A DNA stretch of 61,511 nt. It comes from Nemertoderma westbladi (lineage: Eukaryota > Animalia > Xenacoelomorpha). The first letter of the stretch is position 1. The number at the start of each line of letters is the position of its first letter. Shown in pieces: positions 10,846-61,511 of this stretch. Both the position numbers and the translations under genes were made by a program. The notes below the pieces were generated by a model that searched no databases, was not told the DNA's origin, and was given only the letters and a program-made list of their open reading frames with translations. The stretch lies in NCBI GenBank assembly GCA_032718475.1, contig JAUCBJ010006112.1:1-61511 (forward strand). The letters are read 5' to 3'.

Positions 10846-10984
10846 TTAATTACTGCGGTTGCCGGTTGGTTTTACCTAGATTACAATTTTTCTAATACAA
10901 TGATAATTCGTTAAGCCATAAAATAGAAAGGTTTTTTATTGTTGTCCCCTCGAAATTTCTACAAAATCACAGTTCCTGTAATTG

Positions 10985-25282: not shown

Positions 25283-27886
25283 CTATATATCTGACGGGCT
25301 GTGGACCACTGACAGTACTGCTGGACTCCAACCTCACCAATTTAGTCTGTGTGATTATATATTATACACATCGCACAAACCCTTTGTATTTATTGGGAAT
25401 GCAAATATTATAAATCTTGTGCAAAATTTCTATGTTTCTTACTTAGGTTAGAATTACGACAGGATGTTAATTGAAACTAAATTTACATGTCAGAGTTAAT
25501 TAAGTGTTACATATTTCATTCCACTTTCTTCACTTATAAATTAAATTAAATTAAATCTTAGTCATTATTTCCAGCTTAAACGAAACATAAATTAATTGAC
25601 CTCCAAACAATTTCGCTTTGGCACATATTCGCACTACCCGGACAACCCTAACAGGCTGTTTGACTATAAATATCCAATCTTCTAAATATACGTCATTTAA
25701 ATGTGAAATATACAATTATTTAACAGGTAATTGTTTAAATATATAATACATATTATAATATATTATTAACATATATATATATTATGATGTACAAAAACTA
25801 TCGCATAGGCCTAATAACCTAATGCAGATCAGGTACTGTACATCCAGTACCCAAGTGTCAACTGTAACTATATCCGAAAAGTGTTGGTGATATGTTTAAA
25901 AAAAACTACACTATTTATTTTTACCATAACTACATTTTAGCAATAATTTAGTAACAGGTTTCTTATTGGGGGAAAACTAGGGATGGAAATTTTCCGAAAT
26001 GTTTCTTCAAGGAATTTTCCGAAATGTCCTGAAAAGTAAATTTTTCTTATATTTTTTAGCAATAACTGGAGCTACCACGATGAAAAGGAATCACTTGTTT
26101 TTCAGTCCAATAGGTTCTTGTGTTTTGATCACTGGCAAATAGATTTACATGTCAGCTTCCATTCTTCAAAAAATTGAAGTCAAACAAAAAATAGCAAATA
26201 ACTGAAATTTCCGGAAATACGGAAAACAGCAAACTTGGAGCAGGAAGTTTATGTTTATATCTCTATAAATTAGCACTAACACTATTTATCTCGAAACTAA
26301 ATTAAACATTTTGATATTTAAAGATACAACTTTCTACAAAAGGATTTTCATATATTTGGCCAACTTTGAATTTTATGGCAGAAAGAGCACCTAAAACACT
26401 AAAATAACACTTTCTGCAACTTAGGCTAGGAATCAAAAACACCTCTTGTGTGACTTTTAGAGTAACTAAATAAGACTGGAAAATATCGAAAATTGAGACA
26501 TTTGAATATTTAATCCGACACATTTCTAAAATATACCTACGTTTATGAGATTATTGCTGTAGAGCTGTAGATAGAAAATTAGTAAAAAATTTATATTTTA
26601 GAAAAAACCAGTTTTTGTCCCTCTATCAATAATTGTTGATGAAGTTTTCCCCTGAAGCCTATAATTTTTGACGCAAATATAACGTTTTGCAAATTATGGC
26701 ATTCATATTAATTTTTTGTTATAGATAATATCATTTCAATACAATCACTGGCCTGTGAGAACCAAAACATTGTGTAAATTGTTATTGTACCTTTACAGAT
26801 TATTTCACAGAAGATAAAGATACACTTTATTTTACACTGTGATTATAATTAATGAAGAACTTAGGTGGAAGAACATAGCAGTACAATAGATCGTCGGTAG
26901 ATAATTCGGTAAATTACCATCGAATTTCTGGGTTGTCAATCTATTTTAAAAATAGGCTCGGCTACATATCAACATGGCGGGGATGTTTGACGTACCGATG
27001 AATGACATTGATTCATTACTGGGATCGAATTGATGAGATGTCAGAAATAGGGCATAATTTTACGACTTCAAGGAAAAACCTTGAACTGGAGGACAAACAC
27101 TGGACACCATTCCATTAATTTTACCATATAACATAACGCGAAAAAGAATGCGGACCGTAATTATTACAATGGTAAGAACAGTAGCGAGCGCTTCCTACAA
27201 AAGCACACAACACCAGGGAGAGAGAGGAGTTGACGCAGTCACTCGATACGATGGAAAACTCAATTATAGCTTGAGGATCAGAAATGGCTTATTACCACTA
27301 CCAGAGAGGTAATGTAAGTCCGCCCGAGCCAAATGCGTCAGTTAATGCGAATTGGCCGACCTTCAACTGCAAAAGCCGCGGGGAAAACTACCTACGATTC
27401 GTTGAATCAAGAGTAGGCAAGCCAGCGATGCGTGTATTATACAACTCACTGGAGTTGCGTTTAGCATTGGTTTCAAACCCATCCATCGAGTAGAGAAGGC
27501 ACCTGTAGGATGGATTACTGTCTCCATATACTCAGGAAAGCCCACCTGATTGATTATTATTATCATTATTACAATTACCGGATATAAAAATAAATAAGAT
27601 TATATATGTAGGGAGACGTGGTGGGGGACAAAAGGGAACGAGAGCGGCTTTCTAATTACAATTAATACAGTTCTTCGTATTATAGAGAGCGATCGCAGAG
27701 TTTCAGATGCGTTGAAACCATATGAGGTACAATTCATTAAATGCCATTCAATATACCATTCGTTTAAGTGGAAATTACCACTTTACTGTGTGTTTACCGT
27801 GTACTGTGAGGTTAGTTAGACGAAAGAACGTAGTGAGTGAGTGCGCATAAAGATACGAGAATCAGCACATTGTAAAAGTAACCAGC

Positions 27887-28343
27887 AACAGATTTGTATG
27901 ACGTTAAAGTACTGATCAACAGATTTGTATGACGTTAAAGTACTGAGCAACAGATTTGTATGACGTTAAAGTACTGATCAACAGATTTGTATGACGTTAA
28001 AGTACTGATCAACAGATTTGTATGACGTTAAAGTACTGAGCAACAGATTTGTATGACGTTAAAGTACTGATCAACAGATTTGTATGACGTTAAAGTACTG
28101 AGCAACAGATTTGTATGACGTTAAAGTACTGATCAACAGATTTGTATGACGTTAAAGTACTGAGCAACAGATTTGTATGACGTTAAAGTACTGAGCAACA
28201 GATTTGTATGACGTTAAAGTACTGAGCAACAGATTTGTATGACGTTAAAGTACTGATCAACAGATTTGTATGACGTTAAAGTACTGATCAACAGATTTGT
28301 ATGACGTTAAAGTACTGAGCAACAGATTTGTATGACGTTAAAG
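27887..28343. repeat. 31-bp minisatellite, ~15 copies
   Basis: Unit aacagatttgtatgacgttaaagtactga(t/g)c. Confidence 0.97.
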
Positions 28344-28470
28344 TTCGGAGAAACAGATTTGAGGTTATCTTGCACAGTTGCAGTAACATTACAAAAGGAT
28401 AATTTTTCTCAAATTTAAGTAAGATAAATGCAGCACTATATATAATAAGGAGAAAGAAATCGTTTTGTGT

Positions 28471-29373
28471 CTTTTGATCATTGATTTCTATTAATCATCT
28501 TTTGATCATTGATTTCTATTAATCATCTTTTGATCATTGATTTCTATTAATCATCTTTTGATCATTGATTTCTATTAATCATCTTTTGATCATTGATTTC
28601 TATTAATCATCTTTTGATCATTGATTTCTATTAATCATCTTTTGATCATTGATTTCTATTAATCATCTTTTGATCATTGATTTCTATTAATCATCTTTTG
28701 ATCATTGATTTCTATTAATCATCTTTTGATCATTGATTTCTGTTAATCATCTTTTGATCATTGATTTCTATTAATCATCTTTTGATCATTGATTTCTATT
28801 AATCATCTTTTGATCATTGATTTCTATTAATCATCTTTTGATCATTGATTTCTATTAATCATCTTTTGATCATTGATTTCTATTAATCATATTTTGATCA
28901 TTGATTTCTATTAATCATATTTTGATCATTGATTTCTATTAATCATCTTTTGATCATTGATTTCTATTAATCATCTTTTGATCATTGATTTCTATTAATC
29001 ATCTTTTGATCATTGATTTCTATTAATCATCTTTTGATCATTGATTTCTATTAATCATCTTTTGATCATTGATTTCTATTAATCATCTTTTGATCATTGA
29101 TTTCTATTAATCATCTTTTGATCATTGATTTCTATTAATCATCTTTTGATCATTGATTTCTATTAATCATCTTTTGATCATTGATTTCTATTAATCATCT
29201 TTTGATCATTGATTTCTATTAATCATCTTTTGATCATTGATTTCTATTAATCATCTTTTGATCATTGATTTCTATTAATCATATTTTGATCATTGATTTC
29301 TATTAATCATCTTTTGATCATTGATTTCTATTAATCATCTTTTGATCATTGATTTCTATTAATCATCTTTTGA
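28471..29373. repeat. 28-bp AT-rich minisatellite, ~32 copies, enclosed by ~45-bp inverted repeats
   Basis: Unit cttttgatcattgatttctattaatcat. The flanks 28416-28460 and 29394-29438 are imperfect reverse complements. Confidence 0.97.
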
Positions 29374-32300
29374 TAATTGTGTTTTATTTATGTATTTCTA
29401 GATCCTTATCGTATATAGAGCTGCATTTATCCTACTTATTGTGACGATTATGGCGTACTTAAATGGAACATTTAGTCTATAAAACTCTACATTTTCTCTT
29501 CCTAATAAGTGGACTGCTGTTTCCCTAAACTTCAACCCCTTCTAGTATGAATAGTAACCGGGTTTGTTTGTTTGTTTCAACAACCGTGGAGCAATTTTAT
29601 GTTTGTGGTTCAGATTCATTGCAAAATCATTCAACATAGACTTCTCTACTGCGCTATTGAATTTCTAGCGGCAATGTGATGTTACAATGTGCCACATAGC
29701 ATCACGCTTGTAATACTAACGCCGTAAAATAAGATATTTAATTGATCTGGCGACTAGCGAATGGGAAAAATAAGTAAAATCTTTCTAGCACGGAAAGACC
29801 GTGTTCTTTATTTAACAAATAAGTAAAGAGCAGATTGTAAATGCCAACAAAAATTATGAAAAATAATATAGTTTTTCTCATATTGAACCCCATGTAGCCT
29901 ACAATGTCTTCTTGAATCTATCATGTGTCAAGGTACCTGAGAGGAAAAACCCTATCAGCGCGGAACTACTTCAGTAGATATCCTGTACTAGTGTATATGT
30001 AACTGGTACAAAACATCATAACTCCATAAACGATTAGGGAACGGGTAATAAACCTCGTTTACGATATTAGTATTTTGTGCTGTAACTGCGTGTGGTCGTA
30101 AAATGGTTAACGCCCATTACTACATGGAACAGTTGGAAGTTGTAAAAAATGAAAATATTTCAAGAACATTGTTCGTAAAAAGCGCCGACTCAAGGACGAC
30201 CTTTATTTTATGAGCTGTGGGAAATATAAGTAAGTATATTTAACTTCACATAAAAAAATAACCATATTAAAAACAAATATATATCACGTTTTAGCAAATA
30301 ATTTTACCAAAATTAAATCAAATCAAAAACAAAATCACTTCCCCCTACTTCATTTAGCACTCTCTCACCCCCCCCCCCCCCCCCCCCCCAAGCTAAATCA
30401 CACACCCGTACCGAGAGGAACGAGTTAATGGAGAAACCTTCCATACCCGCAAAAAATAAGCCGCTAAAATAAATTGGATTTGGAATTATTTCCGCGGTTG
30501 GGGTAACGGGGGGATAAAACGTATCCATTAATACCTCTAATACCATCTATGTCACGTAAGCGCTGCTGGTTGCCGCGATCGATAAATCAACGGACAATTA
30601 TTCCGATTAATGTGACACGCCGCATTAATCTTGTCGAAAAAAGGAAACGTTACCGCCAATAATTTCCACATCAATCAAACACGAATCGCGGCACCTCACG
30701 GCGGTAAAATCGGAATTAGAACACAATTGGTATGTTTATCCAGTCACACTTCGCACGTTTTCCTGGACTACCGTTGGTTTGGGCAGCAATGAAATTGTAA
30801 TGGAGACAGGAAGCCAATTCCACAGTGTCAATTTATTCTAACCAAAACAATAAACGAAATGCAACATAACACCCCCTCCCCCATCTGTTGTAATGTAAAC
30901 TATACTATCGAATACAACCTGACATTATAAAATAGGTTTTACCAGATGTCTGTTGATTTAACAGACATGAACTTATATTTATTCAATTTCAGATAAAAAA
31001 CAGTCATTCACCATAAAGTCGAACAGCGCAATAAAAAACCGTTGAACACAGTAAATATATCGGGTTGTAGTTTCTAAGTCAACATTTGTCACGATTGAGT
31101 TTTAGTTCTCTTTAATATTGGATCACAGGGCTCATCCATGTATGTACCATTACAATCCCAGAGTTACTTATGCAGGACGCATGAGATCATACGAGCGGTT
31201 TATATATCGTGCATTCGATCGTTTGGTTTCAAAAATATACACAAGAAGATTTAATTGCCAAACTATGACGATGACACACAGCTGGGTATCGGCGCGAGCA
31301 AATAATGAATATAATTAGACCGTCAGAGAAGACGAATCATGATTACCCATAAGTTCCTTAAATTCATGAATACCTAAATAACTAAACTTTTATCAGAGAA
31401 CGATAGCATTCGAGAATGGGGCATTGTATGCGGGAGGAATTAGTATGCAAGGAGCAACAGCGTTCGTCAGGCGATCCATAATTACCCACCGGAAGGAAAC
31501 AGAAGATAGAAAAATAAGATATTCATTTGGAATATAATTCAAGAGGCCTCGATTAATGCAGCTGCTATACCTATAAAACCTTTAAACTAATTTACAGTGA
31601 AGGCATAAAAAAGGAACTGACGTAATTTCATTTGGGACGATTCAGGGAGAAAGAATATTTCAGTTCATTTCAGTATTCATTTTAATAATAATATTATAAG
31701 AAAGAGAGAGAAGTATATTTCTTACTGAAGAGTGGGGCTAGCGTGCCATTGCGTCATAGTCTCATGCAATTAATATTAAAATGATAGATAGGGGGCGCGG
31801 GGAGGGGGGGGGGGGGGGGGGGGCTTCGTTTTGAATTTATTTTGCAGATATTATTTTGCAGTTATTATTTTTTCAAGCATTAATAATCGGAATGTGCGAT
31901 AATGGAATGGCGAGTGAAAAGGATATGCCTCTTCGCAAATGTAATCAACAATACAATATTACGAGGCTAAGAAATTAACAATTCAAATCAAAACTCAAAT
32001 TACAATAGAAAATCTTCCGATATATTTAGGCTGAATTACTAAATAACATATCACTCTCATCTGCATAAAATTATCCGGGGATTTATATCTTCAAAGAAAA
32101 ACAAGTAAACACAGGGGGGACATGGAGAAATGGAGGTAAATTACTAATTACTTAGGAAATTCAATGCCTATATCGCATTGCACTATATACATTCACTTCA
32201 ACAATAGTAGCGAAGTAAAGCTACACGAGCTACATGTCATATTCTACAACCAATTAATATAGATATACATGGAGAACTACAGTTACTAGTTACTGCCCTT

Positions 32301-33519: not shown

Positions 33520-33825
33520 TCAGCCCGTAATGTTATCATACTAAGAGTTAATAATAAAGAAATTCAATGTAATATAACTTCAGCCTTTGTCTCCCCTTTG
33601 TTAATCGTGTAAACGTGCATGATTGCTCAAGTGCTACCTTGAATTGCCTTATTAATATAATATTTTATAATTCAAGCCAATGACAGAATCAACGATATGA
33701 CATAAGTAAGTTGAAAAGTACATAGCGTATCTCATGTATAATATCCATACCAAATTATGTACAAAGAGGTAAACATCATAATATCAAGCATGAAAACAAT
33801 CGACCGAAACCGGAGGCGAGCCGAA

Positions 33826-34552
33826 GGTAGGGGTGGGCGCTAATCCTATCTGCTACCCGAGGGTAGGGGTGGGCGCTACTCCTATCTGCTACCCGAGGGT
33901 AGGGGTGGGCGCTACTCCTATCTGCTACCCGAGGGTAGGGGAGGGCGCTACTCCTATCTGCTAACCGAGGGTAGGGGTGAGCGCTACTTCTATCTGCTAC
34001 CCGAGGGTAGGGGTGGGCCCTACTCCATCTGCTACCCGAGGGTAGGGGTGGGCGCTAATCCTATCTGCTACCCGAGGGTAGGGGTGGGCGCTACTCCTAT
34101 CTGCTACCCGAGGGTTGGGGTGGGCGCTACTCCTATCTGCTACCCGAGGGTAGGGGTGGGCGCTACTCCTATCTGCTACCCGAGGGTAGGGGTGGGCGCT
34201 ACTCCTATCTGCTACCCGCGGGGTGGGCGCTACTCCTATCTGCTACCCGAGGGTTTGGGTGGGCGCTACTCCTATCTGCTACCCGAGGGTAGGGGTGGGC
34301 GCTAATCCTATCTGCTACCCGAGGGTAGGGGTGGGCGCTACTCCTATCTGCTACCGGAGGGTTGGGGTGGGCGCTACTCCTATCTGCTACCCGAGGGTAG
34401 TGGTGGGCGCTACTCCTATCTGCTACCCGAGGGTTGGGGTGGGCGCTACTCCTATCTGCTACCCGAGGGTAGGGGTGGGCGCTAATCCTATCTGCTACCC
34501 GAGGGTAGGGGTGGGCGCTAATCCTATCTGCTACCCGAGGGTAGGGGTGGGC
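33826..34552. repeat. 36-bp minisatellite, ~20 copies, probably internal to a non-autonomous transposon
   Basis: Unit gggtaggggtgggcgctactcctatctgctacccga. It begins right after ggcgagccgaag, which resembles the terminal motif of the DINE-like family. Confidence 0.93.
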
Positions 34553-35026
34553 GATTCTTAGAAAACATAGAAGAGCTGAAAATTATATTCCCAGATTTCA
34601 TAACTTTTCATAACCTTTATCGGCAAATGTTTTGGTAATATTTATATTTTCACCAGTTTAATACTTTTCGGTGGGTGACCCTATTATTCCAAGGCGTGAA
34701 AAAAGTGAAGATTTCTACAATTGGATACTTTATCTCAATTCACTGTCCTATAAGGTTTTTTGGGGTGCTGATTGCATTGCACCTTATTACATGTTTATCT
34801 ATACATATATATCTGTGTTGGGATAATTTTTGGCTCCAAACATGTTGTACGAAAAGTGCAAGTAGCCGAAAAATTTAAATTTATTTACAATAAATGATTG
34901 CAATTTTTACCTAAATTTAGTTTATATTGGGTTTTCTGCCGGCACTGAATATGATAAAACATGTCATGGGGTCACTCATGCAAAGGGTTACTTTTCGGCC
35001 CCACTTAATAGCGGAAAAAGTATTAT

Positions 35027-35805
35027 GGGGAGTCCTCCAATGAGACACACTTGCACCATTCTTGTTCATAAATGTGGTTGACTATGTTCTACGCATGTCC
35101 TTAGATCATCATAATGATGATGGGGTTATGGTTCTACCTACTGGCTCCAGAAGTCGAGGAAATCCTGCCAAGTACCTAACTGATCTTGAGTTTGCTGATG
35201 ACTTAGGAGTACTCTCAGAATCATTAGAGGGAGCCCAACGGCTCCTCAGCTCATTAGAACATGCTGCTTCTAGTGTTGGTCTTTTATTGACTCCAAAAAG
35301 ACCAAACTTTTGACAAGTAACTTTGAAAGTCCTCAGCAAGTCTCTGACCGCATGAGCCTAAGCTCAAAGGATGGTGCTTCAGCATGTGGACGACTTCTGT
35401 TACCTGGGATCATGGATCCGGAAGTCAGGTGAATAGTCTTTCCAGGATTTGAAAGTCACAGAGAATTAATCGGAAACTTAAGGTCCGATTATTTAGAGCA
35501 GCAGTAGTTCCAGTACTCCTCTATGTAAGTCCATACTGGGCTCTAACTGCTGAGGACACCAAATCTCTGGATGGCACATTCACAAGAATGCTACCCCGGG
35601 TTCATTGAGTCAAGTACAATGCACACATCTCCAACCAGACACTATATAACATTGGATAACATTATTAAAGACACGGATGATCTAGCAAATGTCATGGGTG
35701 ATAGGGAGTTGTGGCGGCGCAATTTTGTCGCCAAGCCGGCACAGCATTCTAAAAATGCAGCTGCAATGCAGCATACCGATCCTAGTAGTAGTAGTAGTAG
35801 TAGTA
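35027..35805 (+). mobile_element. Degraded RTE LINE fragment with (TAG)n tail
   Basis: VVDYVLRMSLD...YLTDLEFADDLGVLS with frameshifts. Ends tagtagtagtagtagtagtag. Same family as 40095-41264. Confidence 0.9.
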
Positions 35806-39265: not shown

Positions 39266-39612
39266 CTAAACAACAAGCGGATAGTTAATTTATTAATTAT
39301 CCAAATATATTAATAATAAATTAATTGTTGTGGAGTGGAGTAACGGTTAATTACATAATGTAATGGAACAGGTACCAAATTCGAGTCCCAATAGGGTCGG
39401 TTGATATTATTCGCTATTATGTTGTCTTAGGCACACATACACACACACACACCCGGCATATTATAACCTGGTGAAGTTTATAACCTAGGTACCGGGTCCG
39501 AGCCTCAAGTTGATTTTTCGCTATGGAGAGCATTATCATACTGTTTCATTACATTGTAAAGTTAATGTATTAATTGTACACGTGACACGGTAAAGTGCGT
39601 CCACTTGCATAT

Positions 39613-39770
39613 TATCTTACCTGTTGTTTTGCCTGCTCGAAATGTTTGTGTAGAAATACGAACTTTCATTCTCTTACCTGTTGTTTTGCCTGCTCGAAAT
39701 GTTTGTGTAGAAATACGAACTTTCATTCTCTTACCTGCTGTTTCACCTGCTCGATATGTTTGTGTACGAA
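39613..39770 (-). repeat. 57-bp triplication of a WDR7 exon end plus donor
   Basis: CAG|GTAAGA donors at 39734, 39677 and 39620, each preceded by a copy of ...CACAAACAT.TCGAGCAGG..AAACA.CAG. Confidence 0.92.
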
Positions 39771-40018
39771 GGCGAACGCCCGCTCCCGTATCTTCGGCGA
39801 TGCCGTAGTAACACGCTTTAGTTGCTCCGTCCGCGAATGCTCTGCGGGGGAACTGGAATCCCGAGACATAGAAGCCCGGAGACGTTCGTCGCTTAGCAAC
39901 TGGACGATGAGGGCCTCGGTGTCGAAGAGAAGAAGATGAATGTCTGAATCCTTGGGGTTGGCGCTGACAGGCTGTATGGAGAGAGCCATGGAGGAAGGTT
40001 GGGGTTGGTGGACGGAAT
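39735..40018 (-). CDS. WDR7: WDR7 exon
   Basis: tatctctag|..SVHQPQPSSMALSIQPVSANPKDSDIHLLLFDTEALIVQLLSDE...HIEQVKQQ|gtaaga. 284 nt, phase 1/0. Confidence 0.92.
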
Positions 40019-40094
40019 CTAGAGATACAAGAATGTATGCAAAGCTATACAATATAATTATATTAAATCAGGAATACCAATAATAGACTGCTAC

Positions 40095-41264
40095 GTGGAA
40101 ATCAGAATGGGTTCCGTAAAGGTCGTGGGACCATGGAGCCCATTTTGGCACTTAGAAGGATAATTGAAGAGTTATCAAAAAAGATAGACAGGCATGTTAT
40201 CTTTGTTGACTTCTTCAAGGCCTTTGATTCAGTCTCTCGCTCACGTATGTTCAGCATACTTTCATTATATGGGATTCCTGATGAAATTATTGCAGCAATC
40301 AGATCAGTATACGATGGTTCGACAACATTTGTGTCTACTGTTGACGGTGACACAGAACCATTTGAAGTGTTATGGGGCGTCCTCCAGGGAGACACACTTG
40401 CACCATTCTTGTTCATAATTGTTGTTGACTATGTTCTACGCATGTCTTTAGATCATCATAATGATGATGGGGTGATGATAACTCCACCTACTGGCTCCAG
40501 AAGTCGAGGAAATCCTGCCAAGTACCTAATTGATCTAGACTTTGCTGATGACTTAGGAGTACTCTCAGAATCACTAGAGGGAGCCCAACGGCTCCTCAGC
40601 TCATTAGAACATTCTGCTTCTAGTGTTGGTCTTTTTATTAACTCCAGAAAGACCAAAATTTTGACAGTTAACTTTGAAAGTCCTCAGCAAGTCTCTGATC
40701 GGATGAGCATAAGCTCAAAAGATGGTATGCTTGAGCATGTGGATGACTTCTGTTACCTGGGATGATAGATCCGGAAGTCAGGTGAGGACCTTCGAATACG
40801 TAAGGGAAAGGCATGGGCAGCCTTGAATAGGCTTTCCAGGATTTGGAATTCACCGAGAATTAATCGGACACTTAAGGTCCGATTATTTAGAGCAGCAGTA
40901 GTTCCAGTACTCCTCTATGGGAGTCCATGCTAGGCTCTAACTGCTGAGGACACCAAATCTCTGGATGGCACATTCACAAGAATGCTACGCCGGGTTCATT
41001 GTGTCAAGTATAATGCACACATCTCCAACCAGACACTATATAACATTGGAGGTGTCTCATTGGTTCCCCCAAGCTTGTCACTAGAACAAAATCGCCTCCG
41101 CTTTGCAAGACATTGCTTTCGCCGTGAGGACCAGCCAGTGCATAATCTTGTACTTTGGCAGCCTCATGGAGTGAATAAGCATGGTGGACAGCCCATGACT
41201 TTCTTGAGACTATTAATTCTACGCATGTCCTTAGATCATCATAATGATGATGGGGCGATGGTTA
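40095..41264 (+). mobile_element. RTE LINE fragment (RT plus downstream), inactivated, followed by the start of a second copy
   Basis: NQNGFRKGR, FVDFFKAFDSV, GVLQGDTLAPFLF, DLDFADDL and VDDFCYLG, with in-frame stops. At ~41217 the sequence restarts at LRMSLDHHNDDG. Confidence 0.93.
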
Positions 41265-43705: not shown

Positions 43706-43800
43706 TATATGTGAACGTCCCCATAATAGACTACAATATGTTCTATATTTTAATTGAAAGTTGAATGTTGAAAGTTGAAAGCTCATGTGTAACCCGGGCT

Positions 43801-44475
43801 TTACTCCACCTACTGGTTCCATAAGTCGAGGAAATCATGCCAAGTACCTAACTGATCTAGACTTTGCTGATGACTTAGGAGTACTCTCAGAATCACTAGA
43901 GGGAGCCCAACGGCTCCTCGGCTCATTAGAACAGGCTGCTTCTAGTGTTGGTCTTTTTATTAACTCCAAGAAGACCAACATTTTAACAGTTAACTTTGAA
44001 AGTCCTCCGAAAATGTATGATGGTATGCTCAAAGGATGGTATGCTTCACGACTTCTGCTACCTGAGATCATTCGAATACGTAAAGGAAAGGCATGGGCAG
44101 CCTTGAATAGGCTTTCCAGGATATGGAAGTCACCGAGAATTAATCGGACACTTAAGGTCCGATTATTTAGAGCAGCAGTAGTTCCAGTACTCCTCTATGG
44201 GAGTCCATGCTGGGCTCTAACAGCTGAGGACACCAAATCTCTGGATGGCACATTCACAAGAATGCTACGTCGGGTTCTGTATCAGGTACAATGCACACAT
44301 CTCCAACCAGACACTATATAACATTGGAGGTGTCTCATTGGTTCCCCCAAGTTTGACACTAGAACAAAATCGCCTCCGCTTTGCAGGACATTGGTTTCGC
44401 CGTGAGGAACATCCTGTGCATAATCTAGTACTTTAGTAGCACATGGAGAAAATAAGCATGTTGGACAGCCCATGA
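43801..44475 (+). mobile_element. RTE LINE fragment, continuation of the copy split by the Harbinger element
   Basis: YLTDLDFADDLGVLS...RIRKGKAWAALNRLSRIWKS...VVPVLLYGSPCW; near-identical to 40480-41195. Confidence 0.92.
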
Positions 44476-46521: not shown

Positions 46522-46719
46522 TTTCCTCCCCCTGCTGCCCCTTTAGCTGCTGGATCCTCAGATGGGCGACGTTCTTCAGCGCGGTTAGATTGCGTCGTTT
46601 AAGGACGGCTGTGAGTTGGTTACGTAGACCCATGAGCGTGTCGCTAGGGGTGAGGGCTTCGTCGCAGGCGGCGAGGATATCGTCGGCTTGGGAACCCTGG
46701 ACCACTCGGTCGAGGTGAC
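46522..46719 (-). CDS. WDR7: WDR7 exon
   Basis: ttcctttag|(G)HLDRVVQGSQADDILAACDEA...AVLKRRNLTALKNVAHL...GEE|gtgagt. 198 nt, phase 1/1. Confidence 0.92.
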
Positions 46720-47238
46720 CTAAAGGAAGGAAGGAACATCGGATGAACGGGAACCCTGGACCACTCGGTCGAGGTGACCGAGGAAGGAACATCGGACGAA
46801 CGGGAACCCTGGACCACTCGGTCGAGGGGACCGGGAAGGAACATCGGATGAACGGGAACCCTGGACCACTCGGTCGAGGTGACCTAGGGAAGGAACATCG
46901 GACGAACGGGAACCCTGGACCACTCGGTCGAGGGGACCGGGAAGGAACATCGGATGAACGGGAACCCTGGACCACTCGGTCGAGGTGACCTAGGGAAGGA
47001 ACATCGGACGAACGGGAACCCTGGACCACTCGGTCGAGGGGACCGGGAAGGAACATTGGATGAACGGGAACCCTGGACCACTCGGTCGAGGTGACCTAGG
47101 GAAGGAACATCGGATGAACGGGAACCCTGGACCACTCGGTCGAGGTGACCTAGGGAAGGAACATCGGACGAACGGGAACCCTGGACCACTCGGTCGAGGG
47201 GACCGGGAAGGAACATCTGATGAACGGGAACACTGGAA
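46690..47238 (-). repeat. 53/54-bp array (~9 intronic copies) of acceptor plus exon start
   Basis: Minus unit GATGTTCCTTCCCTAG|GTCACCTCGACCGAGTGGTCCAGGGTTCCCGTTC.TCC; the first 30 nt after AG equal the exon start. Confidence 0.95.
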
Positions 47239-47764: not shown

Positions 47765-49535
<1,771 letters not shown>

Positions 49536-50012: not shown

Positions 50013-50165
50013 CAGTTGATCGATGATACCAGCTGGTCTGGGTGCTATCGTCTCCCAGACGTCCAACAAACTCGATATCGTTATGGGATACAGAGGCTGA
50101 ACGGGAGTGTCGATATCGGTGGCAGCTGGCATCTCATCCGGTATTACCCAGATACACAACCGACC
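50013..50165 (-). CDS. WDR7: WDR7 exon
   Basis: ccccgacag|GRLCIWVIPDE...SLLDVWETIAPRPAGIIDQL|gtaaga. 153 nt, phase 0/0; PAGIIDQL motif. Confidence 0.93.
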
Positions 50166-52133
50166 CTGTCGGGGAAAAAACAAAACAGATACACAACCGT
50201 CGGAGTCGGGGAAAAAAAACAGATACACAACCGACGGAGTCTGGGAAAAAACAAAACAGATACACAACCGACCCTGTCGAGGAAAAAACAAAACAGATAC
50301 ACAACAGACTGAGTCGGAGAAAAACAAAACAGATACACAACCGACGGAGTCGGGGAAAAACAAAACAGATACACAACCGACGGAGTCGGGGAAAAACAAA
50401 ACAGATACACAACCGACGGAGTCGGGGAAAAACAAAACAGATACACAACCGACGGAGTCGGGGAAAAACAAAACAGATACACAACCGACCCTGTCGAGGA
50501 AAAAACAAAACAGATACACAACAGACTGAGTCGGAGAAAAACAAAACAGATACACAACCGACGGAGTCGGGGAAAAACATAACAGATAGACAACCGACCC
50601 TGTCGGGGAAAAAACAAAACAGATACACAACAGACTGAGTAGGGGAAAAACAAAATAGATACACAACCGACTGAGTCGGGGAAAAACAAAACAGTTACAC
50701 AACCGACGTAGTCGGGGAAAAACAAAACGGATACACAACAGACTGAGTCGGGGAAAAACAAAACAGATACACAACCGACGGAGTCGGGGAAAAACAAAAC
50801 AGATACACAACAGACTGAGTCGGGGAAAAACAAAACAGATACACAACAGAATGAGTCGGGGAAAAACAAAACAGATACACAACATACGTAGTCGGGGAAA
50901 AAACAAAACAGATACACAACAGACTGAGTCGGGGAAAAACAAAACAGATACACAACCGACCCTGTCGGGAAAAAAACAAAACAGATACACAACAGACGGA
51001 GTCGGGGAAAAACAAAACAGATACACAACAGACGTAGTCGGGGAAAAACAAAACAGATACACAACAGACGGAGTCGGGGAAAAACAAAACAGATACACAA
51101 CAGACTGAGTCGGGAAAAACAAAACAGATACACAACAGACGTAGTCGGGGAAAAAACAAAACAGATACACAACAGTCTGAGTCGGGGAAAAACAAAACAG
51201 ATACACAACAGACTGAGTCGGGAAAAACAAAACAGATACACAACAGACGTAGTCGGGGAAAAAACAAAACAGATACACCACAGTCTGAGTCGGGGAAAAA
51301 CAAAACAGATACACAACAGACTGAGTCGGGGAAAAACAAAACAGATACACAACAGACTGAGTCGGGAAAAACAAAACAGATACACAACAGACGTAGTCGG
51401 GGAAAAAACAAAACAGATACACAACAGTCTGAGTCGGGGAAAAACAAAACAGATACACAACAGACGGAGTCGGGGAAAAACAAAACAGATACACAACAGA
51501 CTGACTCGGGGAAAAACAAAACAGATACACAACAGACTGAGTCGGGAAAAACAAAACAGATACACAACAGACGTAGTCGGGGAAAAAACAAAACAGATAC
51601 ACAACAGTCTGAGTCGGGGAAAAACAAAACAGTTACACAACCGACGTAGTCGGGGAAAAACAAAACAGATACACAACAGACGGAGTCGGGGAAAAACAAA
51701 ACAGATACACAACAGACGGAGTCGGGGAAAAACAAAACAGATACACAACAGACTGACTCGGGGAAAAACAAAACAGATACACAACAGACTGAGTCGGGGA
51801 AAAACAAAACAGATACACAACAGACTGAGTCGGGAAAAACAAAACAGATACACAACAGACGTAGTCGGGGAAAAAACAAAACAGATACACAACAGTCTGA
51901 GTCGGGGAAAAACAAAACAGATACACAACAGACGTAGTCGGGGAAAAAACAAAACAGATACACAACAGACGGAGTCGGGGGAAAAACAAAACAGATACAC
52001 AACAGACGTAGTCGGGGAAAAAACAAAACAGATACACAACAGACTGAGTCGGGGAAAAACAAAACAGATACACAACAGACGGAGTCGGGAAAAACAAAAC
52101 AGATACACAACAGACGTAGTCGGGGAAAAAAAC
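50149..52133 (-). repeat. 36-38-bp array (~53 copies) of acceptor plus exon start
   Basis: Minus unit TTTTGTTTTTCCCCGAC-NNN-GTC(G/T)GTTGTGTATCTG; the real junction is TTTTGTTTTTTCCCCGACAG|GGTCGGTTGTGTATCTG. Confidence 0.95.
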
Positions 52134-52152
52134 ATAATGTGGGGAGGACGGT

Positions 52153-52870
52153 GAATCGACTAACCACAGAGTCGCCCCTTAGTAACAACTTATAGAATCG
52201 ACTAACCACAGAGTCGCCCCTAAGAAACAACTTATAGAATCGACTAACCTCAGAGTCGCCCCTTAGTAACAACTTATAGAATCGACTAACCTCAGAGTCG
52301 CCCCTTAGTAACAACTTATAGAATCGACTAACCTCAGAGTCGCCCCTTAGTAACAACTTATAGAATCGACTAACCTCAGAGTCGCCCCTTAGTAACAACT
52401 TATAGAATCGACTAACCTCAGAGTCGCCCCTTAGTAACAACTTATAGAATCGACTAACCTCAGAGTCGCCCCTTAGTAACAACTTATAGAATCGACTAAC
52501 CTCAGAGTCGCCCCTTAGTAACAACTTATAGAATCGACTAACCTCAGAGCCGCCCCTTAGTAACAACTTATATAATCGACTAACCACAGAGTCGCCCCTT
52601 AGTAACAACTTATAGAATCGACTAACCTCAGAGTCGCCCCTTAGTAACAACTTATAGAATCGACTAACCTCAGAGTCGCCCCTTAGTAACAACTTATAGA
52701 ATCGACTAACCTCAGAGTCGCCCCTTAGTAACAACTTATAGAATCGACTAACCTCAGAGTCGCCCCTTAGTAACAACTTATAGAATCGACTAACCTCAGA
52801 GTCGCCCCTTAGTAACAACTTATAGAATCGACTAACCTCAGAGTCGCCCCTTAGTAACAACTTATAGAAT
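52153..52870 (-). repeat. 42-bp array (~17 copies) of exon end plus donor, in frame
   Basis: Minus unit TTCTATAAGTTGTTACTAAGGGGCGACTCTGAG|GTTAGTCGA encodes FYKLLLRGDSE-VSR with no stop. Confidence 0.96.
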
Positions 52871-53026
52871 GGTTGACGCCTTCCATAGAAAAAAGTTAGA
52901 GCCGGAGGGCAGGGAAGTTCTTCACCGTCAACCACCTCTAGATGGCGTAACACATGTGGCGCCATATAAGAGCTATGGGGCGGCTTAGATACACCTCTGC
53001 GGAAGCTGCCGCTGTCAGGATTACAA
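52837..53026 (-). CDS. WDR7: WDR7 exon (first donor assumed)
   Basis: attatttag|.CNPDSGSFRRGV...ELPCPPALTFFYGRRQPFYKLLLRGDSE|gttagt. 190 nt, phase 2/0; comparable to WDR7 CPPVTRFFYG...KLLIQGDS. Confidence 0.92.
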
Positions 53027-54130
53027 CTAAATAATAAAATATCAGATAATAAACAATAAAGTAATCGCAGCTAAAAATACATTTCTGAGACAGGATGAAT
53101 AGCTGAACATTAATTTATTTTTATTCATTTAGTCAGAACAAATAAAAATCATCGTGGGCCCAGCTTAGCAAGAATGGTAGAAGATGGCGCTCTAACCATT
53201 CCGATAAAGAGATAGACCTGGGAATACGACTTTGGTGCGCTAATAATCCTTCTACTACAGTATTATACTGTAATCGGCCTGCTGCATTGCAGCTGCACAT
53301 TGAGATGCTTTTGCTGACTAACAAATAAATTTGTGCGACCACCCATGGACCACCATACAATATATAATTGGTTGGCTGTGATGCAGCGTGCATTAAGAAT
53401 GCGCTGACACAACTCCTTATCTACCATGACTTTCGCGAGAATATCCACATCTTCAAGAGCAGTATCCTTAATCAAGAAAGTAATGGGCTGTCCACTATAA
53501 TAGTGGCCCTTATTGCACTTTTTCTCCGAATTTCGATTTTTAATAGTGATATTTTGTACTCCATCGCGTGAAAAAAACATTTTGAAAGATAATTTATCTT
53601 TCAACTTTTTAATAATCTATGGTTAACAACCGTCGGTTAACAACCGTCGGTTAACAACCGTCGGTTAACATATCCAACCGTCAGAGTTATCGAAGTCTGA
53701 CGTCTACCGGTCTGTCCATCAAAATGTACGACAGACAGACATACCGATCGAATGACAGACAGACAGACATTATTCCTCCAAACATTAAAGCTGACATTGG
53801 AAATTATATCAGCGACCCCGAAAACCCACGTGATAAAAATTTGCATTGCTCAATGGTAAGCTTCCTTAATGCCAGACATTATTAACCAGTCAACACATGG
53901 GCACATTATGTTGTCAGTGGTAATGATTATGAAGTGATTTTCAATATTGACATAAACCGAAACAAGAGAAACTAAATGCCACTAAATATGTGCAGAAAAT
54001 CATTAAAGGTTTGAATCTAAGCAGTTACGGGGTGATTGTTGTAAGTATGAACTTGTCACAAAGTATTAGTCGTTATAAAAACAGCCCAATCGACAGCCGT
54101 AATAGATTTTCTTCTGATCGGTTTTGGTCA

Positions 54131-54163
54131 GTGTTGCAACGGGATCCCGATCCTGTTGCAACA
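54131..54163. other. Near-perfect hairpin (possible minimal MITE remnant) immediately before the 56-bp array
   Basis: gtgttgcaac-g-ggatc-cc-gatcc-t-gttgcaacac. Confidence 0.7.
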
Positions 54164-54171
54164 CTAGTTTG

Positions 54172-55928
54172 GGCCTACACGTTACATAACAGTTTCATTT
54201 GTAACAGGTACGTAACAACTTATTGTTGGCCTACACGTTACATAACAGTTTCATTTGTAACAGGTAAGTAACAACTTATTGTTGGCCTACACGTTACATA
54301 ACAGTTTCATTTGTAACAGGTACGTAACAACTTATTGTTGGCCTACACGTTACATAACAGTTTCATTTGTAACAGGTAAGTAACAACTTATTGTGGGCCT
54401 ACACGTTACATAACAGTCTCATTTGTAACAGGTAAGTAACAACTTATTGTTGGCCTACACGTTACATAACAGTTTCATTTGTAACAGGTAAGTAACAACT
54501 TATTGTGGGCCTACACGTTACATAACAGTTTCATTTGTAACAGGTAAGTAACAACTTATTGTGGGCCTACACGTTACATAACAGTTTCATTTGTAACAGG
54601 TAAGTAACAACTTATTGTTGGCCTACACGTTACATAACAGTTTCATTTGTAACAGGTACGTAACAACTTATTGTTGGCCTACACGTTACATAACAGTCTC
54701 ATTTGTAACAGGTAAGTAACAACTTATTGTTGGCCTACACGTTACATAACAGTTTCATTTGTAACAGGTAAGTAACAACTTATTGTGGGCCTACACGTTA
54801 CATAACAGTTTCATTTGTAACAGGTAAGTAACAACTTATTGTGGGCCTACACGTTACATAACAGTTTCATTTGTAACAGGTAAGTAACAACTTATTGTTG
54901 GCCTACACGTTACATAACAGTTTCATTTGTAACAGGTACGTAACAACTTATTGTTGGCCTACACGTTACATAACAGTTTCATTTGTAACAGGTACGTAAC
55001 AACTTATTGTTGGCCTACACGTTACATAACAGTTTCATTTGTAACAGGTACGTAACAACTTATTGTTTGCCAACACGTTACATAACAGTTTCATTTGTAA
55101 CAGGTAAGTAACAACTTATTGTTGGCCTACACGTTACATAACAGTTTCATTTGTAACAGGTACGTAACAACTTATTGTTTGCCAACACGTTACATAACAG
55201 TTTCATTTGTAACAGGTAAGTAACAACTTATTGTTGGCCTACACGTTACATAACAGTTTCATTTGTAACAGGTACGTAACAACTTATTGTGGGCCTACAC
55301 GTTACATAACAGTTTCATTTGTAACAGGTAAGTAACAACTTATTGTTGGCCTACACGTTACATAACAGTTTCATTTGTAACAGGTACGTAACAACTTATT
55401 GTTGGCCTACACGTTACATAACAGTTTCATTTGTAACAGGTACGTAACAACTTATTGTTGGCCTACACGTTACATAACAGTTTCATTTGTAACAGGTACG
55501 TAACAACTTATTGTTTGCCAACACGTTACATAACAGTTTCATTTGTAACAGGTAAGTAACAACTTATTGTTGGCCTACACGTTACATAACAGTTTCATTT
55601 GTAACAGGTACGTAACAACTTATTGTTTGCCAACACGTTACATAACAGTTTCATTTGTAACAGGTAAGTAACAACTTATTGTTGGCCTACACGTTACATA
55701 ACAGTTTCATTTGTAACAGGTACGTAACAACTTATTGTGGGCCTACACGTTACATAACAGTTTCATTTGTAACAGGTAAGTAACAACTTATTGTTGGCCT
55801 ACACGTTACATAACAGTTTCATTTGTAACAGGTACGTAACAACTTATTGTGGGCCTACACGTTACATAACAGTTTCATTTGTAACAGGTAAGTAACAACT
55901 TATTGTGGGCCTACACGTTACATAACAG
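54172..55928. repeat. 56-bp minisatellite, ~31 copies
   Basis: Unit gttggcctacacgttacataacagtttcatttgtaacaggta(a/c)gtaacaacttatt. Confidence 0.97.
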
Positions 55929-57165
55929 TGTATGTTGCCCCCCTTGTCAGAATTTCAAATATGTGTTTTTTGATTTAATCTATAGAATAATTTAATGTGG
56001 ATATAAAATCTGAAAACCGCTTAGCGAAACCTCTTTTAGTTCTGAAGTTAACGCTGGTTTTCTGTATAACGGTCTGTCAGTCAAATTGTAAGACATACAG
56101 AGAGACTAGATTGCACCAAAATACTACCCCTTTAAAACGTTAGAGTCAAATATCAGAAGTTTTGACAAACAATTAATTATGTGACCAAAAATGTGGTGTG
56201 GTATGTCAATGATTAACTCTATTCTAGTCGGAATCTAAACTTTTAATAAATTATCTAACCTGGAAGGTAAAGCCTCACACCTTTCTTTCGCCCCGTATAT
56301 TCGTAACAGAGATATCCTAAAGTATCGAGAAAGTTGTATCTTTCTGTTTATTACTAGTAGTCAAGACGTTCTAGAACTAGAAGTAGTTCTCTAGAAGCGT
56401 TCCTTTCTAGTATTTATTAACATTAATAATGTTATTTATATTCCAGAACATTATGTATACTGTATATACTTTGGTATTATTGTCATCAGTATACTATACA
56501 CCATATCCATTGAATATTGTGTCTTATCAAATTAATTTAGTAGAGTGGCTAAGATTAGCGAACAAGATTACCAAAAGCTTTTTGGGGAACCGGTACATTT
56601 GGGGATAAAAATGGTTGATAAAACAAGAAAATCCTATGCCCCCAAAAAATGTGGCCAAATTAACACTTTCTCAATGTTTATTTCCTTAGCAACATGGATT
56701 TTACAAAGCAACAAGGTAACTATCGGTTAGATTTTTCCCAAATTCGGTAAAGACAATCTTTAGTCTAATCGTTATCAATTTATTGAACAATGTACTCCTG
56801 GAGTCATGGTTACCAATATACTTACCAGGGCAACGGAAATTTATCTACTATAATTTCATCAGTTTATTATAATTTGGCTGGTACAATATAGGAAGCTCAT
56901 TAAAATCGTTATTATAAATAAACTATTGTGGATTTTAAACTAAAACAAATAAGTAAGTTACACCAGAAATCATTACAACAATCCCAATTTGCTACTATGT
57001 CAACTTCCTCTAAATTTACAAAATTATACTTATACAGTGCAGTAGAGTTCGGTAGCTCTAGATCACAAATTATTTAATATTGATTATTATGAAATAATGT
57101 TTGTAAATTAATAGCCTCGTGCAGATGCTAAGGGAAAGCGCATCCCTACGTACATTGTTTATCAC

Positions 57166-60100
57166 AGAGATACAAAAGAACTTACTTTGAAGGAACTCTG
57201 TAGAGATACAACGGAACTTACTTTGAAGGAACTCTGTAGAGATACAACGGAACTTACTTTGATGGAACTCTGTAGAGATACAACGGAACTTACTTTGATG
57301 GAACTCTGTAGAGATACAACGGAACTTACTTTGATGGAACTCTGTAGAGATACAACGGAACTTACTTTGACGGAATTCTGTAGAGATACAACGGAACTTA
57401 CTTTGAAGGGACTCTGTAGAGATACAATGAAACTTACTTTGATGGAACTCTGTAGAGATACAACGGAACTTACTTTGAAGGGACTCTGTAGAGATACAAT
57501 GGAACTTACTTTGATGGAACTCTGTAGAGATACAACGGAACTTACTTTGAAGGGACTCTGTAGAGATACAACGGAACTTACTTTGATGGAACTCTGTAGA
57601 GATACAACGGAACTTACTTTGAAGGGACTCTGTAGAGATACAATGGAACTTACTTTGAAGGGACTCTGTAGAGATACAACGGAACTTACTTTGACGGGAC
57701 TCTGTAGAGATACAACGGAACTTACTTTGTAGGAACTCTGTAGAGATACAACGGAACCTACTTTGACGGGACTCTGTAGAGATACAACGGAACTTACTTT
57801 GGCGGGACTCTGTAGAGATACAACGGAACTTACTTTGATGGAACTCTGTAGAGATACAACGGAACTTACTTTGATGGAACTCTGTAGAGATACAACGGAA
57901 CTTACTTTGAAGGAACTCTGTAGAGATACAGCGGAACTTACTTTGGCGGGACTCTATAGAGAGAGATACAACGGAACTTACTTTGAAGGGACTCTGTAGA
58001 GATACAACGGAACTTACTTTGATGGAACTCTGTAGAGATACAACGGAACTTACTTTGATGGAACTCTGTAGAGATACAACGGAACTTACTTTGTAGGAAC
58101 TCTGTAGAGATACAACGGAACTTACTTTGTAGGAACTCTGTAGAGATACAACGGAACTTACTTTGATGGAACTCTGTAGAGATACAACGGAACTTACTTT
58201 GAAGGGACTCTGTAGAGATACAACGGAACTTACTTTGATGGAACTCTGTAGAGATACAACGGAACTTACTTTGAAGGGACTCTGTAGAGATACAATGGAA
58301 CTTACTTTGAAGGGACACTGTAGAGATACAACGGAACTTACTTTGACGGGACTCTGTAGAGATACAACGGAACTTACTTTGTAGGAACTCTGTAGAGATA
58401 CAACGGAACTTACTTTGATGGAACTCTGTAGAGATACAACGGAACTTACTTTGATGGAACTCTGTAGAGATACAACGGAACTTACTTTGAAGGAACTCTG
58501 TAGAGATACAGCGGAACTTACTTTGGCGGGACTCTATAGAGAGAGATACAACGGAACTTACTTTGAAGGGACTCTGTAGAGATACAACGGAACTTACTTT
58601 GATGGAACTCTGTAGAGATACAACGGAACTTACTTTGATGGAACTCTGTAGAGATACAACGGAACTTACTTTGACGGGACTCTGTAGAGATAGAACGGAA
58701 CTTACTTTGATGGAACTCTGTAGAGATACAACGGAATTTACTTTGATGGGACTCTGTAGAGATACAACATGACTTACTTTGAAGGAACTCTGTAGAGATA
58801 CAACGGAACTTACTTTGTAGGAACTCTGTAGAGATACAACGGAACTTACTTTGTAGGAACTCTGTAGAGATACAACGGAACTTACTTTGAAGGGACTCTG
58901 TAGAGAGATACAATGGAACTTACTTTGAAGGGACTCTTTAGAGATACAACGGAACTTACTTTGACGGAACTCTGTAGAGATACAACGGAACTTACTTTGT
59001 AGGAACTCTGTAGAGATACAACGGAACCTACTTTGACGGGACTCTGTAGAGATAGAACGGAACTTACTTCGACGGGACACTGTAGAGATACAACGGAACT
59101 TACTTTGTAGGAACTCTGTAGAGATACAACGGAACTTACTTTGACGGGACTCTGTAGAGATACAACGGAACTTACTTTGATGGAACTCTGTAGAGATACA
59201 ACGGAACTTACTTTGTAGGAACTCTGTAGAGATACAACGGAACTTACTTTGACGGGACATTGTAGAGATACAACGGAACTTACTTTGTAGGAACTCTGTT
59301 GAGATACAACGGAACTTACTTTGGAGGGACTCTGTAGAGATACAACGGAACTTACTTTGTAGGAACTCTTTAGAGATACAACGGAACTTACTTTGATGGA
59401 ACTCTGTAGAGATACAACGGAACTTACTTTGTAGGAACTCTGTAGAGATACAACGGAACCTACTTTGACGGAACTCTGTAGAGATACAACGGAACTTACT
59501 TTGAAGGGACTCTGTAGAGATACAACGGAACTTACTTTGTAGGGACTATGTAGAGATACAACGGAAGTTACTTTGTAGGAACTCTGTAGAGATACAACGG
59601 AACTTACTTTGACGGAACTCTATAGAGAGAGATACAACGGAACTTACTCTGAAGGGACTCTGTAGAGATACAACGGAACTTACTTTGATGGAACTCTGTA
59701 GAGATACAACGGAACTTACTTTGAAGGGACTCTGTAGAGATACAACGGAACTTACTTTGAAGGGACTCTGTAGAGATACAACGGAACTTACTTTGACGGA
59801 ACTCTATAGAGAGAGATACAACGGAACTTACTTTGAAGGGACTCTGTAGAGATACAACGGAACTTACTTTGAAGGGACTCTGTAGAGATACAACGGAACT
59901 TACTTTGACGGAACTCTATAGAGAGAGATACAACGGAACTTACTTTGATGGAACTCTGTAGAGATACAACGGAACTTACTTTGACGGGACTCTGTAGAGA
60001 TACAACGGAACTTACTTCGATGGAACTCTGTAGAGATACAACGGAACTTACTTTGACGGAACTCTATAGAGAGAGATACAACGGAACTTACTTTGAAGGG

Positions 60101-60452
60101 ACTCTGTAGAGATACAACGGAACTTACTTTGAAGGGACTCTGTAGAGATACAACGGAACTTACTTTGACGGAACTCTATAGAGAGAGATACAACGGAACT
60201 TACTTTGAAGGGACTCTGTAGAGATACAACGGAACTTACTTTGTAGGGACTATGTAGAGATACAACGGAACTTACTTTGTAGGAACTCTGTAGAGATACA
60301 ACGGAACTTACTTTGACGGAACTCTATAGAGAGAGATACAACGGAACTTACTTTGAAGGGACTCTGTAGAGATACAACGGAACTTACTTTGAAGGGACTC
60401 TGTAGAGATACAACGGAACTTACTTCGATGGAACTCTGTAGAGATACAACGG
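57166..60452 (-). repeat. 36-bp array (~90 copies), apparently copies of the upstream WDR7 exon end plus donor
   Basis: Minus unit TATCTCTACAGAGT(T/C)CC(T/A/G)TCAAA|GTAAGTTCCGTTG = Y-L-Y-R-V-P-S-AA|. Phase 2 joins the T starting exon 53026 to give YLYRVPSNCNPDSGSFR, comparable to WDR7 YIYKLPASCLPASDSFR. Confidence 0.9.
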
Positions 60453-61511
60453 ATGATGAATTATTTCACTATAAGGTAGCATTTGTAGTTTAACTTTAAC
60501 GTAAAAACTTTTGAAAATCCGACGTATTTTGATTAAATCACAGTAATGTAATATGCCGATTTATATTTGTACACATAAAACCCTTAGGTACTCTCGTGGC
60601 GTAGTGGTCAGATGGTTAAGGCGTTGGTTACATTACGTAGGTTACGAGTTCGAATCCCAGTCGGGAAATTTGTATTTTGGGGCCATTTATTTTCGTTTAG
60701 GTGCTAATTGGTAGGCCAATGAGAAGCGTACAACGTAGCGGATAATGAGCCAGGCCAATCATAGGGCATAAATTACCTTATTGCTCAAATGTGAGGCAGT
60801 GGAAAATTCTGTTAGGATTCCATGTCCCTGATTAGTGTAAGGGCCGGACTGCGTTGAACGATGAGCTGGGCCAATCATAGGGCACGACGTACTTCATTGC
60901 TCAATTGTGAAGCTGTGGAAAATTTTGTTTAGTTTCCATGTGCAATTTCTAGTATAAAAGGCCGGTTTGCCTTTGGTTATCACCTAATCGCTTCACTTCG
61001 TTATGATTTTGTATAACGTTACTCTATCCTTTTATTCTTGTAAAATTAGTTTATTCGGTTTCTTGTTGAAACTTACTTTGATAAATCCTTTGTTAAAACT
61101 GTAAATATACTGCAATTTCCTGACATGTTTTCTTTTGGTCCGACTTCGGGACAGCCGAACACCAGGGAGATGGCAGCCTAGACCGTTAGGCCGTAAGCAA
61201 CGCAGGGAAGGGATGTCCACAACACGCTAGCGCCCACATTGGATCGACCGCGCACCCCCTTTGCCCTTTCGAAATACTCCACTTGCTATGCAGCGCCCGC
61301 TTTGTGAGAAGGTAAGACTTTGTTCGACGCCCTTGCCCGCCGTAAGACCTATAGATCAGGGTAAGCGTAACACCGCACTGGACGCCGCAAATTTAGGATC
61401 AAATAATTATATCCAGACAACCCCACCCCTCTTGTCAGTCCTACGAACCCCTGGGTTAACCTGTACTTCCTACAGGTGCGAACTATTGCCATTCGTCAGT
61501 ACGCGAGTACA
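60453..61511 (+). mobile_element. Insertion terminating the 36-bp array; possibly the 5' LTR plus leader of an LTR retrotransposon
   Basis: Abrupt junction ...acaacgga|TG. Duplicated CCAAT-containing blocks, TATAAAAG at ~60953, ...TGACA at 61125, then T-run plus TGGTCCGAC (PBS-like) at 61136 and a GC-rich leader. No ORF confirms it. Confidence 0.35.
60590..60668 (+). mobile_element. tRNA-derived SINE-like head (not a tRNA gene)
   Basis: A-box TGGCGTAGTGG and B-box GAGTTCGAATCC are present, but no clean anticodon arm or acceptor stem. Confidence 0.6.

Follow-up and report, generated by a model that had tools for sequence, protein, structure and literature searches.

The intron between exons A and B of WDR7 in Nemertoderma westbladi consists almost entirely of two back-to-back minisatellites, each built from one of the intron's own borders. 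The double array is a pair of "mirage" minisatellites and an extreme example of a known repeat type. In the best-supported reading, which we hold with high confidence, both arrays likely arose through slippage in an intron some 50 nt long and are spliced out whole, as seen in one transcript assembly, and the WDR7 protein is predicted to be unchanged. Positions refer to the window, the full 61,511-nt stretch of DNA that was analyzed (contig JAUCBJ010006112.1), and the features are collected in Table 1.

Host gene and anatomy of the intron

The original prediction had placed the intron in a WD40 region, and homology searching with tblastn identified the host gene more precisely as WDR7, also called Rabconnectin-3 beta. 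In a search with exon D, the best two of 12 matches were the urchin and lamprey WDR7 proteins (E values of 1e-29 and 1e-27). Using these two proteins in tblastn, together with a 17-sequence profile, nine WDR7 exons were located between 53026 and 33336, spanning profile positions 285 to 865. All nine have AG/GT borders and consistent phases, and together they form one open, stop-free frame colinear with WDR7 residues ~285 to 865. Exons A and B alone returned 0 Pfam families, and a PDB sequence search returned generic WD40 proteins only, with a WDR7 structure absent. Against 121 homologues, a set gathered with an urchin query and almost entirely deuterostome, the exons showed 49 to 57% identity throughout, with hemichordates at the top (54 to 56%). 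Judged from this uniformly low exon identity, the host animal is not close to any of the 121, lancelets included.

Table 1. Positions of WDR7 exons, the double-array intron, and other splice-site arrays in the window
Feature	Position	Strand	Description	Evidence
WDR7 exon A	52837..53026	-	190 nt, phase 2 to 0	tblastn; covered exactly by X3 contig
Donor mirage array	52153..52870	-	17 units of 42 nt; true donor 52836 plus 16 decoys to 52164	
Spacer, unique	52134..52152	-	19 nt	Read from assembly sequence
Acceptor mirage array	50149..52133	-	55 units of 34-37 nt, true one included	
Intron as spliced	50166..52836	-	2671 nt, GT..AG, phase 0	X3 contig positions 1547 and 1548 at 50165 and 52837
WDR7 exon B	50013..50165	-	153 nt	tblastn and X3 contig
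WDR7 exon C	49738-49570	-		
Second acceptor mirage	48028..49532	-	~37 units of 37-46 nt, AG kept in most; fills nearly all of the 1524-nt exon C-D intron	
WDR7 exon D	48045-47825	-		
Third acceptor mirage	46690..47237	-	10 units (52-59 nt), 5 of them with AG; precedes exon F	
WDR7 exon F	46719-46522	-		
WDR7 exon G	40018-39735	-		
Donor mirage after exon G	39611..39766	-	57 nt, 3 donors; read-through stop at codon 4	
Donor mirage of the exon upstream of exon A	57166..60453	-	36 nt, ~90 units; read-through stops at once	

Together, the two arrays make up 99.3% of the intron. Tandem Repeats Finder (TRF) called the donor array over its whole extent with a period of 42 nt, 17.1 copies, and 98% matches, and called the acceptor array from 50149 to 52130 with a period of 36 nt, 54.9 copies, and 90% matches; the respective scores of 1387 and 3143 are far above chance. 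As originally predicted, about 17 copies of an exon end followed by G(A/T)G|GTTAGT are present: 17 units were counted at an exact 42-nt spacing, with first intron bases at 52836, 52794, and so on to 52164. Each unit comprises the last 33 nt of exon A plus GTTAGTCGA. The triplet preceding the donor is GAG in 14 units and GTG in 3, and the GT of GTTAGT is kept in 17/17. Unit-by-unit reading likewise bore out that the donor unit is in frame and free of stops, with read-through producing a 14-aa repeat, VSRFYKLLLRGDSE, that carries substitutions in four copies. Twelve of the 16 decoy units are identical to the true unit, and 6 of the 7 substitutions among the 16 decoys change the amino acid. The frame of exon A continues for hundreds of codons into the intron, and the whole intron holds one stop in that frame.

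The stretch of unique sequence between the arrays, described earlier as about 20 bp, is exactly 19 nt long. On its other side, each acceptor unit combines ~20 nt of intron end with the first 17 nt of exon B, at spacings of 36 nt (32 cases), 37 nt (15 cases), 35 nt (6 cases), and 34 nt (1 case). The earlier figure of some 53 acceptor copies was not borne out as worded: there are 55 acceptor-derived units, but an AG in register occurs in only 5 of the 55 (50962, 50600, 50491, 50274, and the true 50166) and 27 have no AG. Among the 54 decoys, the in-register CAG/G survives in 4, a new CAG lies 2 nt beyond it in 22, and a single unit (50241) has its CAG a little upstream; the remaining 27 are AG-less. 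The unit variants are patterned rather than random. The true acceptor AG sits in the 3-nt loop of a predicted 5-bp hairpin (50161-50173), and it is precisely at these three loop bases that most decoys deviate. Collapsing both arrays to one unit each leaves an intron of 48 nt, and on this sequence reconstruction the 19-nt spacer is likely to be the middle of an original intron of ~48 nt.

Splicing across the arrays and reality of the repeats

Four of the eight listed sequencing runs carry WDR7 (X1 to X4); X1 and X4 derive from one sample and X2 from another study. Run X3 is catalogued as "DNA?" and was read as RNA from its exon-only, spliced coverage. It is a single transcript-like run kept as contigs, a form from which rare variants drop out. 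One X3 contig of 2451 nt (depth, 189) matches the window with zero mismatches, contains exons only, and skips the exon B-C intron at GT..AG. Its positions 1395-1549 map to 50013-50167 and 1547-1737 to 52836-53026, so that base 50165 directly adjoins 52837: the first donor is joined to the last acceptor with no extra units. Beyond exon C the contig has 1225 nt, compared to 1224 nt for exons D to I, a fit with no additional units there. The exon-proximal site was also used in X3 at the exon D acceptor and at the donor of the exon upstream of exon A, in line with the strict proximal-site selection offered as one outcome of the original prediction. A retrocopy is an unlikely source of the contig, which is mismatch-free; unique intron DNA beside the exons has no coverage in X3.

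The other outcome that had been offered was a tunable-length protein produced by a ladder of alternative donors, with a single product from the 52837 donor named as the observation that would speak against it. At contig resolution, that single product is what X3 contains: one junction, and no transcript with more than one donor. No X3 contig covers decoy sequence beside exon A or B, since the depth in the border bins is explained by the one spliced contig (91.1 = 189.2 x 13/27; 60.2 = 189.2 x 7/22). The last four 31-mers of exon A recur 13 to 15 times in the donor array, and an abundant ladder transcript would therefore have made the contig loop and break, as do the contigs of the DNA runs, which end at 52841-52845 and serve as a positive control.

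Regulated use of distal donors in some tissue or developmental stage, with 14-aa repeats tuning WDR7 length or activity, is a very unlikely explanation, even though every one of the 16 decoy donors has a GT and is in frame and stop-free, most with a unit identical to the true one. A frame-keeping, stop-free unit has a chance of ~3 in 10 of arising anyway (1/3 x three new non-stop codons), the corresponding contig is absent from X3, and the substitutions that decoys have acquired are mostly nonsynonymous. The position of the insert in the protein also argues against a ladder. The intron falls between GDSE and GRLCIW, and the GDxxGxxxxW spacing across this junction is kept in 119 of the 121 homologues; of the other two, one is a variant of equal length and one a partial protein. 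Lancelet WDR7 as modelled by AlphaFold (local pLDDT, 74 to 81; whole model, 51) has a 4-residue turn at the junction, flanked by strands 384-389 and 394-400. An insert of 14n residues in this conserved predicted beta-turn would be likely to distort a blade of the propeller.

Unregulated leakage is a separate possibility, also unlikely although somewhat less so than a regulated ladder. The arrays would then carry a cost for expression or modulate it: a few percent of transcripts could use decoy sites, or exon B (in frame) could be skipped in a length-dependent manner, making array length a splicing QTL. The precedent is a 25-bp VNTR in intron 18 of human ABCA7, where the second donor is reportedly used at ~2% and skipping of the following exon changes with array length (De Roeck et al. 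2018, PMC5954066). As there described, each ABCA7 unit has a donor GT and the array begins at the exon end, as in the WDR7 donor array; the ABCA7 units differ in being out of frame and without exon sequence. In the WDR7 intron, the decoy acceptors at 50241 (+75 nt) and 50274 (+108 nt) are in frame and stop-free, the in-register AG has been lost from 50 of the 54 acceptor decoys as if purged, and rare forms would be invisible in contigs. At contig resolution, neither leakage nor length-driven skipping of the ABCA7 kind was seen in X3, and AG loss is not general: a new CAG is present in 23 of the 54 decoys, and splicing at the exon D array, most of whose units have an AG, nevertheless takes place at the last copy. 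The same observations led us to reject an AG purge as a general means of silencing decoys. A leak of a few percent may be compatible with the X3 data, which are one run in contig form. That the arrays are harmless is something we infer only, since the ABCA7 array both leaks and alters exon skipping.

The preferred reading of an intron spliced out whole assigns site choice to position. Relative to the site that adjoins unique exon sequence, every additional copy is found toward the intron. The spliceosome would define each exon across its unique body and take the nearest donor and acceptor, and exon definition with nearest-site choice would leave the decoys silent or leaking at most a few percent, with the arrays drifting nearly neutrally. 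Two structural alternatives were discarded. Pairing of the donor array with the acceptor array as a looping device would have to rely on a longest complementary word of 6 nt, and masking of decoy donors by RNA structure is contradicted by donor 1 and donor 10 folding alike.

The arrays are not an artefact, as DNA runs from two studies contain both units at high depth. In X1, X2, and X4, unique flanking contigs end at the array edges, where repeat loops are found; the acceptor unit is present in short high-depth contigs in all three runs, and the donor unit in a 72-nt loop contig at high depth in X2 and X4. The ratio of loop to flank depth in X2 (411.9/31.4 = 13.1) resembles the 13.3 window copies per loop 31-mer, with the qualification that contig depth is no copy number, that the exon B flank in X2 lies at half that flank depth, and that one of the DNA runs, possibly X2, may itself be the source of the assembly. 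The 19-nt joint between the arrays and the total length come from the assembly alone, and the missing 3' half of WDR7 could mean that the local assembly is faulty. Taken with the patterned unit variants, the read evidence makes mis-assembly of the arrays or of their direct fusion the least credible of the alternatives, to be given hardly any weight.

Other arrays in WDR7, origin of the intron, and the surrounding window

Four further splice-site arrays were found along WDR7. An X3 loose end connected exon C with the unique beginning of exon D, past the second acceptor mirage. In an X3 loose end, the upstream exon finishes with 24 nt that equal the exonic part of the ~90-copy unit, which shows this array, at first sight a microexon array, to be a donor mirage. 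The unique part of that exon had no match in the window. The array is detached from its exon, with at least 1 kb of unrelated sequence between it and the window end (61511), and its start falls within the intronic portion of a unit, as though an insertion had broken into it.

Five of the nine long arrays in the WDR7 span cover one of the 18 splice sites, compared to ~0.4 expected (P = 2e-5), and without the array pair that had first been flagged, the figure is three of seven (P = 0.003). The null model assumed uniform placement on collapsed sequence (p = 0.046 per array) and concerned a single gene, chosen after the fact. The detached donor array is a sixth splice-related array. TRF periods of the six splice-site arrays were all multiples of three, compared to 4 of 11 other arrays (Fisher p = 0.035), where the 11 comparison arrays were hand-picked and one 23-nt two-copy array was left out. 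Such periods speak for a regulated ladder, but they are only a hint, because the commonest spacing in the exon D array is 38 rather than 39 and the other two donor arrays of WDR7 meet a stop within 1 to 4 codons.

Slippage usually leaves short direct repeats at array ends, and four of the six arrays have such repeats, spaced by one unit. They measure 4 nt at the donor array of the double-array intron and 7, 8, and 11 of 12 nt at three others in WDR7. The repeat at the acceptor array of the double-array intron is 2 nt long, and none was seen at the exon G donor array. In the proposed sequence of events, such repeats would have primed a first tandem duplication across each border, followed by growth and homogenization through slippage or unequal exchange. 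The anatomy, with its collapsed length of 48 nt and its short direct repeats at the array ends, fits the suggestion in the original prediction that a very small ancestral intron was inflated from both ends, a history that we infer. Two observations weigh against the preferred reading: the GT is kept by all 17 donors, with GTTAGT being the commonest donor of WDR7 (3/9), and microhomology at the acceptor is weak.

A broader hypothesis can be framed from the same data, in which tandem expansion in this animal targets splice junctions instead of hitting them by chance: a border-tied process would repeatedly inflate tiny introns (~50 to 100 nt) 5- to 50-fold from one or both ends and be a main route by which introns grow. 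While splicing was still leaky at an early stage, unit lengths would have been filtered toward multiples of three, and WDR7 would be left with an in-frame 14-aa ladder at low level. It draws on the five of nine arrays on splice sites, the detached sixth array, and three WDR7 introns that collapse to roughly 48, 60, and 100 nt. We regard this junction-aimed expansion as doubtful.

The window as a whole is very rich in tandem repeats, according to TRF. One 56-nt array of 31 copies (54172-55929) shows on the plus strand, antisense to WDR7, a splice-like motif of CAG and then GTAAGT or GTACGT, and ends beside a short inverted repeat (~54130-54165), with no adjacent exon seen. Additional long minisatellites for which no exon border was seen occupy 2-1330, 15305-17994, 27884-28361, 28470-29379, and 33821-34553 (periods of 42, 23, 31, 28, and 36). 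Segments 53260-53310 and 53408-53457 matched hundreds of very-high-depth contigs in the DNA runs and some in X3, and are the two termini of a dispersed, highly abundant ~200-nt repeat. A reverse transcriptase fragment lies at 7478-7948 (RVT_1, E value of 2e-10), and related LINE-like pieces could be recognized by eye inside WDR7 introns at ~35040-35640, 39990-41230, and 43800-44460.

No WDR7 exon past profile position 865 (of ~1480 residues) was found on either strand of the window, and the X3 contig, judged by its length, stops at the end of exon I. The 33 kb beyond the last WDR7 exon (1-33335) hold other genes. At 4983-13610 and 21025-23403 lies a gene cluster with long uninterrupted reading frames, unlike the intron-rich WDR7, encoding MRG, STEEP1, a short-chain dehydrogenase, a methyltransferase-like ORF (below the Pfam cutoff), a 792-aa ORF with GAF and phosphodiesterase domains, and a 435-aa ORF without a Pfam match that is presumably IQCD-like. 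WDR7 may be split, may contain a very large intron with nested genes, or may be mis-joined in the assembly.

Relation to known border repeats and meaning for splicing

Mirages are tandem copies of exon-intron borders described in lancelet Adh3, globins BflGb6 and BflGb9, troponin C, and PGBD5, with units of 10 to 160 bp that reportedly leave splicing intact (Ebner et al. 2010, PMC3087553; PMC3902484). In both WDR7 arrays, head-to-tail units span an authentic border, fixed here by homology and the X3 contig, the units are of minisatellite size (42 nt and 34 to 37 nt), many but not all copies carry GT or AG (GT in 17/17; AG in register in 5/55 and shifted in 23), and the authentic sites are the ones used, 52837 to 50165, in one run at contig level. 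Contigs collapse the arrays, which would hide the length polymorphism or somatic instability that is a further mirage feature. Compared to the lancelet examples as described there, the WDR7 intron differs in having a donor and an acceptor array within one intron, 19 nt apart and filling 99% of its length, and copy numbers in WDR7 (17, 55, and up to ~90) exceed those of the lancelet globin mirages (6 or fewer). A literature search by title, abstract start, or passages found no double-ended mirage intron; subscription papers lie largely outside such a search, and the original Adh3 paper may hold one.

A human repeat provides a close parallel on the donor side. In the 37-bp VNTR of F7 IVS7, the first unit is reported to span the exon-intron border, and splicing reportedly takes the most upstream donor alone among five to nine identical ones, even in cases where choosing a distal one would bypass a stop (Borensztajn et al. 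2006, PMC1557585). The likeness to the WDR7 donor array lies in the border-spanning first unit and in splicing from the most upstream donor alone; the F7 repeat, as presented there, differs in having a donor side only, fewer copies, and no acceptor array. The Rogers model, as outlined in passages of PMC3087553 and PMC2812944, derives new introns from an AG/GT proto-splice site duplicated in tandem and shares with the WDR7 intron the conversion of exon-end copies into intron sequence. Birth of the WDR7 intron from one exon-derived AG/GT unit was rejected, as the intron contains two different, unrelated units, each with its own intron-derived part, as well as a unique spacer. The WDR7 intron likely came first and was then enlarged, rather than being created by duplication.

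The biology of WDR7 is probably little affected by these arrays, as the protein looks normal. Their interest lies in a natural experiment, with 16 in-frame donor decoys and 27 AG-bearing acceptor decoys in an intron with almost no other sequence. With the donor decoys in frame and so little other intron sequence, site choice must come from position or exon context rather than from nonsense-mediated decay of donor products. Such arrays can also mislead gene prediction, as illustrated by the reading frame that remains open for hundreds of codons beyond exon A. The WDR7 intron is a ready-made minigene for comparing exon definition with scanning, at both ends at once and in an invertebrate, and, because arrays are in excess on splice sites, the still unexplained origin of mirages can be put to a genome-wide test.
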